A stretch of 64,000 bases of DNA from a virus. The stretch lies in the IMG/VR virus record IMGVR_UViG_3300044641_005643. One strand, written 5' to 3'. The notes beneath the pieces were generated by a model that did no database searches, was not told the DNA's origin, and saw only the letters and a program-made list of their open reading frames with translations. Positions within the stretch are counted from its first letter, which is position 1, and each line of letters begins with the position of its first letter. Shown here piece by piece: positions 34,197 through 48,305 of the stretch. The translations under genes were made by a program, and so were the position numbers.

Positions 34197-36857
34197 TTAT
34201 TCAAACGTAAATAGGCTGTCAAATGTTGTTTTAATATCAGTATGCGAAGGAATATCCCACTCCAAAACTCCTAACAAGTTTTCCACTTTTTGATCCACAA
34301 TAGTGCCTTCCATCTCTGAATCGTCAAATGGCAACTCTTTGAACCAAGCGGGCAAGTGTGTTTCGTCTGTGGGATAACCAACTGATGTATAACCAAGGGG
34401 ATTGTCTTTGAGTTTGCACACAATAGTTTTCATACCATCCACAATGGCCATGCTGTAGTTGTCACTGTGCATTCTACGCAAATTGTTCCAGTTCATGGCA
34501 GCACGTACATGCCCGGGCATGTTGGCTCGACCCAGGCGTTCTTCTTCTTTGGTATATTTGGTCAAATTATTGACACGTTTAGGAGTACCTTTTTCCCAGG
34601 CCGGTCTATCTTGGAACGCAAGTTTAAAGTCTCTCACTTTGTTATAAACATGTTCTTGGGCTGAGCCTGTCAAGACATCAGTAAGCAAATCACTCAAGAA
34701 GTCCTGCACAACCTTGGGAGTGTCTGAACGCTTGAGATCCAGGCCCATGGCCTTGACCTTGCCTGGCTTGCCGTGTGTGTCTAATCTATGCCCTTCTAGA
34801 TCATATATGAGAACAGCGTATCGTTTCTTTTTTATAAACAATCCCTTACTTGCAACAAGTTCGCGTCCACCTTTAATAAGTTCGCCCATTGCTCTAGGCA
34901 CGTGACAAGCTCGCTCCATAAAGGCCGGGAAACTGGCATTGACTTGGTCGGCAATTGAATCATAGAGCTGGGCACAGATTTCTTTAGTCCATTCCATTCG
35001 CCCGGATTCAACTTCTTCTCTAACTGCTGGCCAAGCTGTGAAATAACATGAATCAGTGTCGCCATAGATAATACTTTTACCGACATGGTCGTACTCTCCG
35101 AATATGCACTCATTGATATACGCATCCATGTGTCTAGCGATGATCCGTCCAGTGAGCGTAGTACTTTGACCAATCCTTTTATCGAAAAATCTACAACCTG
35201 GATTGAGAATTGCTCCGTAGAGACTGTTAAGGTTAATCTTTTTGACAAGTTGTCGCTTGTCCCAGAACGCCTTGTCCTCATCTGTAGTGGCTTCTTTTTT
35301 CTTGGCTTGCAGTTCCTTACGTTCCGCATACCACCTTTCTAACAGTCCTGGTACAACTGCTTTTTGTTCATAACTAAAGATAGTTCCATTGGCACTCAAC
35401 ATCCAGGGTTGATTGCTGTCAAATATCATGCGCCAGACATCGGCAGCACTCATTACATCCGATCCACCTGCCTCCCAATCAACTGTGATTTCCGTGCCAA
35501 TTTCGCCTGCCATCACAGCAGTATATTCAAGACTACCAAACATGTTTTCCCAGGCATCTGCAAAGCTTGACCCTGCAGCCATTTTGTCTTGAATATATCT
35601 GTCGGTCATTATGGGCCGGAGTTGCCCGACAATCGACTCTTGTGCCATGTTAAGAGCGCGGATCGCTGACGGGTAGAGACTGTTGATGTCGATTGCGCCG
35701 ATCCAGTCGTGCATTCCTTTCTTGGGGAAAGCAACATAGGCACCTGCCGCTTGTGTGTCTCCTTGGTCATCTCTTCCTTTCCTGTTAGGTACAACCATAC
35801 CTCGTTGATGTGCTTCATTGATAATTGCTTGCTCGGTTACTGCTACAGCTCCCATTGTGGTTGGAAGCAATACTGTATTATCATGTGCCAGTTCATTGGC
35901 TAGATCTAGGAAACGCAGTTTCTTGTCTAGTTTAGCAACAAGCATGGTATCTTGCCTGTTGTAATCAATAAATTTAGGAAAGTCTTTGTTGTATAATTGG
36001 TCCAGTGTGCCTTCGTACTGTGTCTTGCGTTCTTCCAGTTCATATTCACCGATGGCATCCAGACTGTAACTGTGGCGTTCTTCGTATGTGTATTTGCGAT
36101 ACAGTTGCATATAGTCCATATGCACACGACCAATCAAGTCAAATGTGAGATTCTCTGCCCCAAAGCGTTCGAATGTTCTTTGTTTAGGCAGTTGCCCCCA
36201 CAAGCAAAATCTACGTGTGTCGTCTTTGTTCAGCACTCGAGTCACACGCATGACCATATAGGGAATATCAAAGCCTTCCGAGTTCCAACCACTTAGTATG
36301 TCAGCGTCATCAATTATATCTAGAAAAGTATTGAGTAAGTCTTCTTCACGTTCAAAGAGAAAACAGTTGTCATACTGATTGCAAATTTCTTGTGCCGTTT
36401 CCCAACTGTAACTCTTGGGTGGAACCACCAGTGTAACCAGTCGATCCATCCAGTCTAGATAAACACTTATTGCAGTAATAGGATTAAATGGATCCTCTGG
36501 CTTTGAGAAACCTCTTACCGGATCAAAATCTACCTCAATATCGAAAAAAGCAGTTTGTAGTTTAGGAGATTCTGCACCTAGATAATGTTCTTCTAGACAT
36601 CGGAACACTGGATTGATATCTGATTCCCAGACACGCTTGTTGCTATTGATGCGTAATTCTTTTTGAAATTCTTTATTCGAACGACATGAAAACCTACTAA
36701 CAGGAGTACCATAAACAGTACGAAATTTTCCGCGAGGGTCATCGTAGTAAAAGATATAGCTGGCCGGATATTCTTTATAACGTCGTTCTCCGCCAACACG
36801 TTCTACAATGTGGATACAATCCTGGTTACGATCATATAAAGCATCAATATAGCTCAT
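34197..36857 (-). CDS. family B DNA polymerase (gp43-like)
   Basis: Exo FDIEV, WNSEGFD, YNRQD; Pol DINSLYPS, KINLNSLYG, YGDTDS, KKKRYA. Confidence 0.97.
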   Translation of the reverse strand: MSYIDALYDRNQDCIHIVERVGGERRYKEYPASYIFYYDDPRGKFRTVYGTPVSRFSCRSNKEFQKELRINSNKRVWESDINPVFRCLEEHYLGAESPKLQTAFFDIEVDFDPVRGFSKPEDPFNPITAISVYLDWMDRLVTLVVPPKSYSWETAQEICNQYDNCFLFEREEDLLNTFLDIIDDADILSGWNSEGFDIPYMVMRVTRVLNKDDTRRFCLWGQLPKQRTFERFGAENLTFDLIGRVHMDYMQLYRKYTYEERHSYSLDAIGEYELEERKTQYEGTLDQLYNKDFPKFIDYNRQDTMLVAKLDKKLRFLDLANELAHDNTVLLPTTMGAVAVTEQAIINEAHQRGMVVPNRKGRDDQGDTQAAGAYVAFPKKGMHDWIGAIDINSLYPSAIRALNMAQESIVGQLRPIMTDRYIQDKMAAGSSFADAWENMFGSLEYTAVMAGEIGTEITVDWEAGGSDVMSAADVWRMIFDSNQPWMLSANGTIFSYEQKAVVPGLLERWYAERKELQAKKKEATTDEDKAFWDKRQLVKKINLNSLYGAILNPGCRFFDKRIGQSTTLTGRIIARHMDAYINECIFGEYDHVGKSIIYGDTDSCYFTAWPAVREEVESGRMEWTKEICAQLYDSIADQVNASFPAFMERACHVPRAMGELIKGGRELVASKGLFIKKKRYAVLIYDLEGHRLDTHGKPGKVKAMGLDLKRSDTPKVVQDFLSDLLTDVLTGSAQEHVYNKVRDFKLAFQDRPAWEKGTPKRVNNLTKYTKEEERLGRANMPGHVRAAMNWNNLRRMHSDNYSMAIVDGMKTIVCKLKDNPLGYTSVGYPTDETHLPAWFKELPFDDSEMEGTIVDQKVENLLGVLEWDIPSHTDIKTTFDSLFTFE

Positions 36858-37061: not shown

Positions 37062-37322
37062 TCAAAGAGTTTTACCTACAGTTTGAAGAATAGTGTTCAG
37101 TTCTTCGTTGTCGGCGTTTTCTTCGCCCAGTTTTGATTTGAATGCAGTACGTATCGCTTTTTTAAGAATAGCAGGCTTGATTTCCATTTCTTCTGCTACT
37201 GCTTTAATTGTGTCGCTCAGGCCGGCATTGAGATCTTCAACTTCTTGCATGATAGTCATGCCTTCATTGATGATTTGTGTAAGTTTGGCTTTTTGTTCTG
37301 CAGAGAACATTCTTGAACTCAT
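37062..37322 (-). CDS. T4 DsbA-like double-stranded DNA-binding protein
   Basis: 86 aa helical; KL..II.E...I.D.IK..AEE..IKP..L.K.I pattern; AGGAG SD. Confidence 0.6.
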   Translation of the reverse strand: MSSRMFSAEQKAKLTQIINEGMTIMQEVEDLNAGLSDTIKAVAEEMEIKPAILKKAIRTAFKSKLGEENADNEELNTILQTVGKTL

Positions 37323-37347: not shown

Positions 37348-37376
37348 ATTATAAACTACAAATAGGGAAAATACAA
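37348..37376 (-). promoter_or_regulatory. sigma70-like promoter
   Basis: TTGTAT-N17-TATAAT. Confidence 0.5.
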
Positions 37377-37385
37377 GAAAATTTT

Positions 37386-37456
37386 GCTCACTTTAACTCT
37401 TGGGGCACGACTCCTTTGAGTAGCGCAGCAGCCGCGCACACCGGTCCTAAGGGTGT
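37386..37456 (-). ncRNA. unassigned structured RNA (three hairpins plus a possible pseudoknot)
   Basis: GC-rich intergenic island: ACACC/GGUGU, GCGC/GCGC, CUC/GAG stems; loop GCUGCU complementary to tail AGUGAGC; strand not certain. Confidence 0.55.
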
Positions 37457-37457
37457 T

Positions 37458-37652
37458 CTATTTTTTTGATTCGCAGATTCTGGTTCTTTCTAATGTGCCA
37501 TCTGGCCTAGTTTCTTCTCGCCATTCAGTACAAATCTGTGTTTCTGTTTTGGGTTTTTCTGGTACCAATCGATCCACTGTATAACTGGCAGTCATCCAGC
37601 CCATGGCACTGAAGAAACCCCACACTATCATGTATGGTACTTCACCTAACAT
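37458..37652 (-). CDS. small membrane-anchored protein
   Basis: N-terminal hydrophobic segment, two Cys. Confidence 0.6.
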   Translation of the reverse strand: MLGEVPYMIVWGFFSAMGWMTASYTVDRLVPEKPKTETQICTEWREETRPDGTLERTRICESKK

Positions 37653-38837: not shown

Positions 38838-39521
38838 TTACTTAAAAGCTTGACTTTTACCATAATCATCTTTATGATTACTGGTCTTTTCATACATCAC
38901 TGTATCTGTGTCTCCCAGGCGCCATTTGGGATTTTGTTCTACCACATACTTGCGAGTACAAACTCGAAAATCAGGAAACTTCATGTCTGTAGGATTACTG
39001 GCAGCATCAAAGAACAAACAACGATTGTTGGGCTGTGCTGCATACTGTCCATTATCTAGTTCTATAAAGTTAAAACTTTTGTGATCTTCGGGCCATTCAC
39101 TGTAGCCAGTGTCTATAATGTTATGATCCGGGTGTGCATTATCTACGGTAAACAAATAATTACCCGAATACATTTGTTTGTCTTTGGCGTAAAACTTACA
39201 ACTTAAATTCTTTAAAAAGGCTTTTTGAATTATAGCAATATCGTAATCAAAACAGTCCCATATTTGTAAAGAGTCTAGAGGTAAAAAATTCTGTGTGTCA
39301 AGATTCTCTGTGCGTGATACAAACGCATGCAAAGGTAGTTTGTCATAAAGTGCGCCATAGTTGGGTAGATATGCTTCTATTCTAAATGCCTGCCCTCTGA
39401 TACTTTTTAAAGTGATCCAGATGCAAGGCTCGTATTCTCCGTGTCCTCGTTCGAAGTCATAAAGAAACTCTCGTCGAATGTACGAATGTATTGGTGGTAA
39501 GTTAGCTACTAAAAAACTCAT
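38838..39521 (-). CDS. hypothetical protein
   Basis: FLVANLPP, GALYDKLP, LQIWDCF, NGQYAAQPNNR. Confidence 0.8.
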   Translation of the reverse strand: MSFLVANLPPIHSYIRREFLYDFERGHGEYEPCIWITLKSIRGQAFRIEAYLPNYGALYDKLPLHAFVSRTENLDTQNFLPLDSLQIWDCFDYDIAIIQKAFLKNLSCKFYAKDKQMYSGNYLFTVDNAHPDHNIIDTGYSEWPEDHKSFNFIELDNGQYAAQPNNRCLFFDAASNPTDMKFPDFRVCTRKYVVEQNPKWRLGDTDTVMYEKTSNHKDDYGKSQAFK

Positions 39522-46054: not shown

Positions 46055-48305
46055 TTTCGTCTATTCTATGTTTGAAGTCAGCTGCTACCGGTTGAAATAC
46101 AAATTTGCTATCCACACAATCAACTACTATAGTGGCATTGGGCATGATAGCTTCGAACAAAATCTTTTTACTCAAAGGCACTTTGATTGATTCATTGATC
46201 TTTCTTTGCAAAGGTCTTGCACCCATCTTGCTATCAAAACCATTCAGGATCAATTCATCCACTGCCTGTTCTGTAAGTCGCACACGCAACTGTTTGTCAA
46301 GTAGCAGTTCATTTAGTTCATTGATAAATTTATTCACAATCTTGCGCATGCTGAGTTGGTCAAGCTTGCTGAATTTTACTACGCCATCCAATCTGTTTCT
46401 GAACTCGGGTTTAAAGAAGTCTTTGACAGCTCGGTCATCTTCACCTTCGCGTTCCAAGGCAGTGGTAAATCCAATGGTGTTTCTATCGTTGTCTGCCGCC
46501 CCAAGATTACTTGTTAAAATAATTATTGCGTTTCTGCAATCGGCTTTTTTGCCATTGCTGCTGGTAACTGAACCTTCATCCATCATTTGCAACAGCACGT
46601 TGCTGACATCTGGGTGTGCTTTTTCTATTTCATCCATAAGGATGATACAGTTGGGATTCTTTTCAATGTCGGATATCAACAATCCACCACCCAAGTTGCC
46701 ATCATCATAACCCACATATCCGGGCGGAGCACCAATCAGCTTGGCCACGGTATGACGTTCTTGATATTCACTCATGTCATAACGTAACAGTTTCATACCA
46801 AGTGTTTCTGACAGCAGTTTGGCCAATTCTGTTTTGCCTGTGCCTGTGGGGCCTAGGAACAAGAAATTGCCAATGGGCTTGTTGATTGATTTGAGTCCGG
46901 CCTTGCTCACATAGATTTTTTCTAGCACTGTATCTACAGCCCGATCCTGACCGTACAACCTATCCTTGATCCGGTGTTCTAGATAATCTACACCTGCACT
47001 GTCTGTACCGGCCTGCACGCCAATTTGATCCACTGGAATTTTGGTAATTCTACTGATGGCATTCACAATGTCTCGCTTGCCAATTGACCATACCGTGTGT
47101 TTGATTCTATTCTTCGCACAGCAGGCATCGATTAGGTCAATGGCCTTGTCGGGCAATTTTTTATCAGTTTGATATCTCACTGACAAATCAACTGCTGCGT
47201 CAATGGCGTCATCGTAAATGGTGCCACCATGGAAATCCTCAAAGTTGAATCGCAAACCACGCAAAATTTCTTTGGCAATTTCTGGCGTGGGTTCATCAAT
47301 GGTCACACGCTGGAACCTACGCATGAGTGCGCGGTCTTTCTCAAAGCTTTGTGTGTATTCTTCCCACGTGGTGCTGGCAATTACTTTGATCTTGCCTTTG
47401 CTGAGTGCAGGCTTGATCATGTTGGCTAGATCCACGCTGCTCTGACTGCCTGCACCGGCACCACGCATTTGATGCGCTTCATCAATGAAAAGAATCGTCT
47501 TGCCTTTTACGTTAAGAGCAGACAAAATTTCTTGTATCTTTTCTTCAAAGTCGCCTCTATATTTGCTGCCAGCCAACAGGCTACCAATATCTAGGTTATA
47601 CACAGTGTAATCGTAAAGATATTCGGGCACAGTTTTGGTCACTATTGATAATGCTAATCCTTCAGCAATAGCAGTTTTACCCACACCGGGATCGCCTACC
47701 ATAAGCACATTGGATTTATTTCTTCGTGCCAGTATTTCTACTATGTCATTGAGTTCTTGTGTGCGACCAATCACAGGATCAATCTTGCCGTCAGTGGCCT
47801 GCTTGTTGAGATTTTCGCAATAGTGATCCAACACTTTGTCGGCTCGATTGGTAGTTGCTATACTCTTTCTGGCATCGGACTTGTAGCTTTTGTTGTAGAT
47901 TTCAACCAGTTTGGCTCGATCAAGATTGTACTTGCTCATGAAGTAATGAGCATAGCTGTTTGATTCGGCATGAATGCTCAAAAACAAATCCATCAACTCA
48001 ATGTGTGTTCTAGCACTGAATAACACTTGTGTAAATGCCCGATTAAAAACACGTTCCAATGCATGTGTTTTTTTGGGTTCCTGTTCATCCACAATCAAGT
48101 TGGTGGCCTGTAACAGGTATGATTCTAGTTCGGCATCAAGACTGCCAACATCTGCACCAAATTGGGTCAAAAGGTCTTTGAACGGATCAAATCTGATCAT
48201 TGACAAGAACACATGTTCCAGTGTCACGTACTCGTGACTGAGGGTCTTGGCCAGTTCGGTGGCTTCGGCCACAATATGATCAATTTCGGGATTGGTTTGC
48301 AGCAT
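46014..48305 (-). CDS. clpA: ATP-dependent Clp chaperone ClpA
   Basis: Clp-N HEY.TLEH, GDPGVGKT, GSKYRGDFE, LFIDEAH, GPTGTGKT, DMSEYQE, MGARP. Confidence 0.93.
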   Translation of the reverse strand: MLQTNPEIDHIVAEATELAKTLSHEYVTLEHVFLSMIRFDPFKDLLTQFGADVGSLDAELESYLLQATNLIVDEQEPKKTHALERVFNRAFTQVLFSARTHIELMDLFLSIHAESNSYAHYFMSKYNLDRAKLVEIYNKSYKSDARKSIATTNRADKVLDHYCENLNKQATDGKIDPVIGRTQELNDIVEILARRNKSNVLMVGDPGVGKTAIAEGLALSIVTKTVPEYLYDYTVYNLDIGSLLAGSKYRGDFEEKIQEILSALNVKGKTILFIDEAHQMRGAGAGSQSSVDLANMIKPALSKGKIKVIASTTWEEYTQSFEKDRALMRRFQRVTIDEPTPEIAKEILRGLRFNFEDFHGGTIYDDAIDAAVDLSVRYQTDKKLPDKAIDLIDACCAKNRIKHTVWSIGKRDIVNAISRITKIPVDQIGVQAGTDSAGVDYLEHRIKDRLYGQDRAVDTVLEKIYVSKAGLKSINKPIGNFLFLGPTGTGKTELAKLLSETLGMKLLRYDMSEYQERHTVAKLIGAPPGYVGYDDGNLGGGLLISDIEKNPNCIILMDEIEKAHPDVSNVLLQMMDEGSVTSSNGKKADCRNAIIILTSNLGAADNDRNTIGFTTALEREGEDDRAVKDFFKPEFRNRLDGVVKFSKLDQLSMRKIVNKFINELNELLLDKQLRVRLTEQAVDELILNGFDSKMGARPLQRKINESIKVPLSKKILFEAIMPNATIVVDCVDSKFVFQPVAADFKHRIDENGYIVLEEPIAQY

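Follow-up and report, generated by a model that had tools for sequence, protein, structure and literature searches.

The window (the whole 64-kb stretch of viral DNA that was analyzed) carries on its minus strand a 71-nt, GC-rich spacer, positions 37386-37456, that can be folded into a compact RNA and whose G+C content (~59%) exceeds that of the surrounding DNA (~35-40%). This RNA starts 2 nt past the stop codon TAG (37458..37460, minus) of a 64-aa upstream ORF (37458-37652), and a sigma70-type promoter (37348..37376, minus; -35 TTGTAT, 17 nt, -10 TATAAT) starts 10 nt beyond its tail, outside the RNA. After the promoter come a Shine-Dalgarno site and the ATG (37322) of an 86-aa gene (37062..37322, minus), here called dsbA, the usual downstream neighbor of the element; its product matches PHROGs of DsbA-like double-stranded-DNA-binding and late-transcription proteins (PHROGs 12534, 639 and 254). 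Next past dsbA lies a T4-type DNA polymerase gene (34197-36857, minus), and two genes upstream of the element is a 227-aa gene (38838-39521, minus) that matches PHROG 3704, annotated as a ferredoxin (an auxiliary metabolic gene). A DNA-binding protein gene is also among the neighbors behind sigma70-type promoters. A consensus scan made no call for TTGTAT-17-TATAAT because its -35 hexamer matches at only 3/6 positions; the promoter is kept in relatives as TTGCxx-17-TATAAT. The earlier note had placed the element at the 3' end of a late operon, just before a sigma70 promoter. The 3' end of a transcription unit and the promoter both stand, but a DsbA-like protein and a T4-type DNA polymerase as neighbors point to a replication/early-gene region of a lake-water T4-like phage rather than to a late operon.

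From 5' to 3' on the minus strand, the RNA consists of P1, P2, a P3/P4 hairpin, an A-rich linker and a tail that folds back onto the P2 loop. In P1 (37438..37456), ACACC pairs with GGUGU (37456-37452 with 37442-37438) around the 9-nt loop CUUAGGACC (37451-37443), while P2 (37423..37437), whose stem covaries, has two GCGC strands around the loop GGCUGCU (37433-37427), the 5' strand of a pseudoknot. P3 (37396..37421) pairs ACUC (37421-37418) with GAGU (37399-37396), covaries strongly and encloses P4, present here in its class-A form with GG (37414-37413) and CC (37405-37404) around the loop AGUCGUG (37412-37406). Behind the linker, the tail AAAGUGAGC (37386..37394) supplies AGU(G)AGC, which pairs with GCUGCU of the P2 loop as an H-type pseudoknot with a bulged G and one G-U pair. 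The tail marks the 3' boundary of the element, since the DNA past its terminal GAGC differs in relatives with inserted genes. The sequence agrees with the three minus-strand hairpins described in the earlier note, the CUC/GAG stem of that description being included in P3. Folded as a single sequence, the minus strand is no better than its shuffles (z = -0.63) and the plus strand is mildly better (z = -1.87); the window copy thus proves nothing alone, and comparative data decide.

A covarying family of phage RNAs

More than 250 distinct copies of the element occur in IMG/VR lake-phage contigs, carried by T4-like and giant phages of lakes, and they form two classes distinguished by the P4 loop. 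A 34-nt core is identical across 19 IMG/VR contigs despite wide divergence of the coding DNA on either side. A looser pattern matched at least 119 contigs and gave at least 105 distinct versions of class A (alignment A1), to which class B, with its other P4 loop, adds 116 further distinct versions. The P1 stem is variously ACACC/GGUGU, CUUCAC/GUGAAG, AUACACUA/UAGUGUAU, AUCAUCC/GGAUGAU and others, while the loop core CCUUAGGAC stays invariant as the stems change; long forms carry an additional covarying hairpin, P1a, within the P1 loop. P2 and P3 show dozens of double changes, and 3/4 pairs of the P2 stem have many. P4 is invariant in class A and in class B has a covarying stem of 3-4 bp with the loop AUUCGCUAC, A-N-U-C-G being the sole element common to both P4 loop classes. 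Around 30 bases in loops and junctions are invariant.

When 87 distinct class-B rows were aligned with a model, 93.5% of their cells at paired positions were paired; shuffles gave 72.7% and slid controls 32-45%. The covariation score of 0.489 (0.151 in shuffles) was reached by 0/500 shuffles. G-U pairs exceed A-C pairs (21 vs 8 and 43 vs 25), which, together with gene direction, assigns the RNA to the minus strand. For the pseudoknot, double changes were found at 3/6 pairs and 95.4% of cells were paired. Compensatory loop/tail combinations include GACUACU/AGUAGU, GCCGCU/AGCGGU, GGGUGCU/AGUGACC, GGCCACU/AGUGUGGC, GGCUACU/AGUAGC, GAACCC/GGGUUC and UCUCCCUG/CAGGGAGA. Because divergent members keep this pairing of a hairpin loop with a downstream strand in wholly different sequences, the H-type pseudoknot is proven, and the P2 loop/tail contact with one bulge and one G-U pair, proposed from the window alone, is confirmed. 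In both classes the canonical, imperfect pairing of loop and tail is surprisingly well preserved.

The element is a real and undescribed phage RNA family, in which P1, P2, P3, class-B P4 and the pseudoknot all covary. A cmscan of the whole window against Rfam 15 at the gathering threshold gave no match for the element, and nothing relevant appeared at E <= 10 on either strand for the window element or for long class-A and class-B members. Full-text literature searches yielded no description of such an RNA family, and those on the loop motifs and on phage RNAs complementary to 23S rRNA yielded nothing relevant. The suggestion of an unassigned structured RNA on the minus strand, for which an Rfam search and a collection of homologs had been proposed as checks, is thus borne out on both counts: its novelty stands, and the homologs have covarying helices. 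The resemblance of the plus strand to twister and twister-sister elements was not upheld, since no ribozyme model matched either strand at E <= 10 and the excess of G-U pairs favors the minus strand. A widespread, sharply conserved fold that belongs to no Rfam family amounts to a new RNA family with a proven pseudoknot. A tRNA/tmRNA search returned no tRNA or tmRNA, and a reading of the spacer as a mini-ORF was dropped as not conserved among members.

Two family members queried by blastn had no match among GenBank phages. Four cultured jumbo phages, Sinorhizobium phage Phosso, Pseudomonas phage PA5oct, Agrobacterium phage Atu_ph07 and Salicola phage SCTP-2 (L331-L334), have a DsbA-like gene followed by a T4-type DNA polymerase gene, with a spacer of 64-124 nt upstream of dsbA; the covariance model found no copy in Phosso, PA5oct, Atu_ph07 or SCTP-2, though the DsbA-polymerase synteny is kept. 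A bacterial genome collection gave 2 matches. One (L130) was set aside as a chance match without P1 or P2. The other (L131), the only real family member in that collection, is a phage-like contig that carries both the element and dsbA and was assigned to the MAG of an uncultured Lishizhenia sp. (Bacteroidota); this binning may be a weak hint at the host, or an artefact.

Placement among exchanged phage genes

In ~100/126 related loci, a same-strand upstream ORF ends between -11 and +8 nt from P1, and these ORFs belong to many gene families. Since the ORF ends within a few bases of P1, the element behaves as a 3'-UTR element. Two relatives (L012 and L015) have the 64-aa upstream ORF reduced to a stub that runs into the element and stops at a UAG within the P1 loop motif, and the same -11 arrangement is seen with other upstream genes. 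The window holds no promoter of the element's own, and transcription would presumably occur as the 3' UTR of the upstream message, possibly followed by trimming to a stable RNA. One contig of metatranscriptome run X24 covers dsbA of a relative only (37127-37318), outside the element.

The element lies within 4 kb upstream of dsbA in 186/241 element-bearing loci. Among 75 syntenic DsbA-polymerase relatives, collected via the DsbA-like protein and required to have sufficient flank, it is present in 32 (~42%) and absent in 43, in which the promoter directly follows the upstream gene. In other relatives, inserted genes sit between the 3' edge of the element and the dsbA promoter, which travels with dsbA. 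The many syntenic relatives without it and its nearness to dsbA in most loci indicate an optional, self-contained insert at a hot spot. A riboswitch or 5'-UTR regulator of dsbA was rejected because the promoter lies downstream of the element, 43/75 relatives have no element and inserted genes separate the two. Gene insertions fall exactly between GAGC and the dsbA promoter in L002, L008, L024, L032, L037, L045, L106, L124 and others; several of the inserted genes start 11-26 nt past GAGC with no visible promoter or Shine-Dalgarno site, and in L037 and L124 the distal insertion junction repeats GAGC plus spacer. Judged from these junction sequences, insertions at the GAGC edge evidently mark a hot spot of module exchange.

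Such a position, between a stop codon and a sigma70-type promoter, with gene cassettes exchanged exactly at the 3' edge, could also suit a passive 3'-end element, such as a terminator, an insulator or a barrier to exonucleases, at which the upstream message would end ahead of an early promoter. The GC-richness of the element in an AT-rich genome fits such a role, as does the resistance that a pseudoknotted 3' end would be expected to offer to 3' exonucleases. PeSLs are simple hairpins with many repeats per genome. Arbiol et al. reportedly described them in 2010 as cassettes of T4-type phages that combine an early promoter with a stem-loop. Like a PeSL, the element is structured, stands directly upstream of a sigma70-type early promoter and lies at a boundary of gene-module exchange; unlike PeSLs, it is pseudoknotted, has invariant loops and is single-copy in the window, in whose 64 kb the covariance model found one copy and a repeat search found no repeat family that involves it. 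A look-alike at 47511-47540 was discounted as a partial chance match in apparently coding DNA. Invariant loops and a conserved imperfect pseudoknot exceed what a stability hairpin needs, and more than half of the syntenic relatives manage without the element. UUUU follows the tail within 10 nt in only 57/187 family members, and a terminator scan of the window called none at the element. An intrinsic (Rho-independent) terminator was rejected for want of a U-tract, so the original remark that the element has no U-tract and is no terminator was roughly right. Overall, we regard a passive role as unlikely.

The upstream gene itself could be the object of regulation if the structure stimulated -1 frameshifting or readthrough. 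An in-frame A AAA AAA run (37461-37467, minus) directly precedes the stop codon, 5 nt before the structure. However, this heptamer and spacer are features of the window only, most long forms having other upstream genes and no slippery run. UAG and UAAG variants shift the register of the -1 frame, which is not conserved, and P3 indels are not multiples of three. A recoding signal is therefore highly improbable. An analogy with T4 oriE was likewise abandoned, as a review places no such structure at oriE, and a role as an R-loop primer does not suit an element that lies upstream of the promoter.

Complementarity to ribosomal RNA

The main lead to function, which the earlier note did not contain, is the complementarity of the invariant P1 loop to 23S rRNA. 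The stretch CCUUAGGACCG (37441..37452, minus) holds the exact complement of E. coli 23S rRNA 1920-1930 (rrlH, E. coli K-12), which we take to cover the 3' strand of helix 69 and to run into the start of helix 70, and the duplex has a predicted energy of -19.2 kcal/mol. In long forms, CUACCUUAGGACC extends the complement to 13 nt (23S 1921-1933). The P1 loop is unpaired in the predicted fold, so that, as in antisense RNAs, an invariant exposed loop faces a defined complement; it starts with CUUA, a match to the YUNR motif in the loops of antisense RNAs that pair fast. Furthermore, 23S 1930-1937, which directly adjoins the stretch matched by the P1 loop, has its complement in the class-B P4 loop AUUCGCUAC, and the proportion of shuffled class-B P4 loops that landed in this 23S neighborhood was 0.002 (~0.2%). 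Sites complementary to the P1 loop showed no enrichment within the window.

A contiguous 17-mer antisense to 23S 1921-1937 occurs in 22 IMG/VR contigs (L335-L356). Two of these (L352 and L353) hold true 23S genes inside 'viral' contigs, and L343 includes a piece of 23S, 57 nt long with its end at position 1921, which may be an interrupted rRNA gene. In the remaining contigs the 17-mer sits in diverse, unrelated, non-rRNA scaffolds, several of which carry extra blocks that are antisense to 23S 1945-1975. In 8 of ~14 distinct scaffolds the 17-mer lies 7-74 nt past the end of a same-strand ORF, and in some it is followed by a terminator that has the antisense orientation. By itself, the number of 17-mers does not greatly exceed what chance would give in so large a collection, and it is the scaffold flanks that carry the weight.

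The same matches could alternatively reflect DNA, with the element acting as a recombination hot spot or as a partial mimic of a homing-endonuclease site in 23S rDNA. This stretch (rDNA 1915-1938) is a known homing-endonuclease target (PMC2602781), gene insertions are concentrated at the locus, and the 23S fragment of L343 ends within the same stretch. Duplex DNA would nevertheless have no need of the RNA-type pairing (G-U pairs and a pseudoknot) that covariation preserves, and the site is represented here by only 11-13 bp; we consider a DNA-level feature very unlikely.

The reading that we tentatively prefer, and rate at somewhat under an even chance, is that the element is a 3'-UTR RNA whose displayed P1 loop pairs with host 23S rRNA. 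The scaffold would hold out the invariant P1 loop for pairing with 23S 1920-1930, and in class-B relatives the second loop would pair with the adjoining 1930-1937. Helix 69 and its neighbors are a hub of the subunit interface. The target stretch is base-paired in mature ribosomes, which counts against pairing with 23S there, and the likelier target would be nascent or unfolded rRNA, or a free 50S subunit. Candidate consequences include a block of 50S assembly or subunit joining, ribosome tethering and rRNA cleavage.

Several other observations count against pairing with 23S rRNA. The motif is partly or wholly buried in an extended P1 in some members (L135, L152, L185 and L099), the class-A P4 loop, as in the window, has no significant rRNA complement, and the variable P3 shows chance same-sense 11-mers to rRNA. 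The nearly palindromic CCUUAGG raises the chance of an rRNA match, and covariation cannot separate rRNA pairing from an internal contact, because the invariant loops never vary. A further match was tried and rejected: the P2 loop with its closing pairs, CGCGGCUGCUG (37425-37435, minus), is an exact complement (9-11 nt) of 16S 519-529, which we take to be the 530 loop, but variants change the loop, lose the 16S match and restore pairing with the tail. The match is a by-product of the fold, and attractive rRNA matches can thus arise without function.

These look-alikes, and the burial of the 23S motif in some members, lend substance to a different possibility, in which the 23S match is coincidental and the invariant loops bind a phage or host protein, form a ligand pocket or make up the active site of a new self-cleaving ribozyme by which the polycistronic message is processed. 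Compact folds that combine a pseudoknot with ~30 invariant loop and junction bases are typical of ribozymes and aptamers, and A-N-U-C-G, common to both P4 loops, is what a tertiary-contact motif might look like. However, even at E <= 10 none of the models of known ribozymes and riboswitches gives a match, the downstream promoter argues against a 5'-UTR switch, and such a role would leave unexplained both the adjoining second complement of class B and the unrelated scaffolds that combine the 17-mer with further 23S-antisense blocks. We regard this as the main rival, rather unlikely and somewhat less probable than pairing with 23S rRNA.

Relation to known RNAs and the ribosome

Antisense RNAs that present a loop to their target include CopA/CopT of plasmid R1 and RNA I/RNA II of ColE1, and CpxQ and SroC are base-pairing small RNAs derived from 3' UTRs. 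The element resembles the former in its stable scaffold, its short invariant loop complement and its YUNR-type CUUA start, and the latter in its location in a 3' UTR. It differs from CopA, RNA I, CpxQ and SroC in that its presumed target is rRNA rather than an mRNA or a replication primer, with pairing that is here predicted, and in that its scaffold is a pseudoknot with an embedded hairpin in which neither an Hfq-type 3' end nor a terminator is conserved. In the topology of its fold it equals the preQ1-II riboswitch, likewise an H-type pseudoknot whose hairpin loop reaches past an inserted hairpin and an A-rich linker to pair with the tail. Unlike preQ1-II, it lies outside a 5' UTR and sequesters no ribosome-binding site, and the Rfam comparison showed no similarity of sequence or model.

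Pairing of an mRNA or a guide RNA with rRNA is known from the TURBS of caliciviruses and from snoRNA guides. As in those systems, both the short complement and the rRNA stretch that it matches are conserved here, and in class B the complement is bipartite and covers adjoining rRNA bases, whereas TURBS and snoRNA guides are eukaryotic, act on 18S rRNA or as box-motif modification guides, and have motifs that are absent here. We know of no phage RNA that acts on the host ribosome through its rRNA, and effects of this kind are known only from man-made antisense oligomers. A synthetic PNA against helix 69 of E. coli 23S rRNA blocks translation and inhibits growth, in the account of Kulik et al. 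2017 given in PMC12828698. The element complements the same 23S region, but the PNA described there is artificial and directed at the helix 69 hairpin itself, whereas the element is a natural RNA that would pair with the 3' strand of helix 69 and with helix 70 (1920-1937).

Pairing of the loops with 23S helices 69-71, if real, would mean that phages can act on the host ribosome directly, RNA on rRNA. It would also point to a natural target for antisense RNAs in the ribosome that is universally conserved. Its short length (71 nt in the window) makes the idea directly testable with synthetic RNA and purified ribosomes.

A bolder form of this proposal, which we hold with less confidence than loop pairing as such and consider somewhat unlikely, is that a dedicated folded RNA seizes host 23S 1920-1937 at the helix 69-71 hub and, by docking on free or nascent 50S subunits, controls subunit joining or assembly, with several scaffolds convergent on this target and the class-A P4 loop perhaps mimicking the small subunit. 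If so, it would, to our knowledge, be the first natural antisense RNA directed at rRNA in a bacterium or a bacterial virus. The sequence AGUCGU of the class-A P4 loop (37407-37412, minus) is of the same sense as 16S 1493-1498, presumably the helix 44 strand that normally contacts helix 69; a 6-mer match to 16S is expected by chance, and only its location is suggestive. In two members (L155 and L159) the same-sense match extends to 8 nt, GAAGUCGU (16S 1491-1498).
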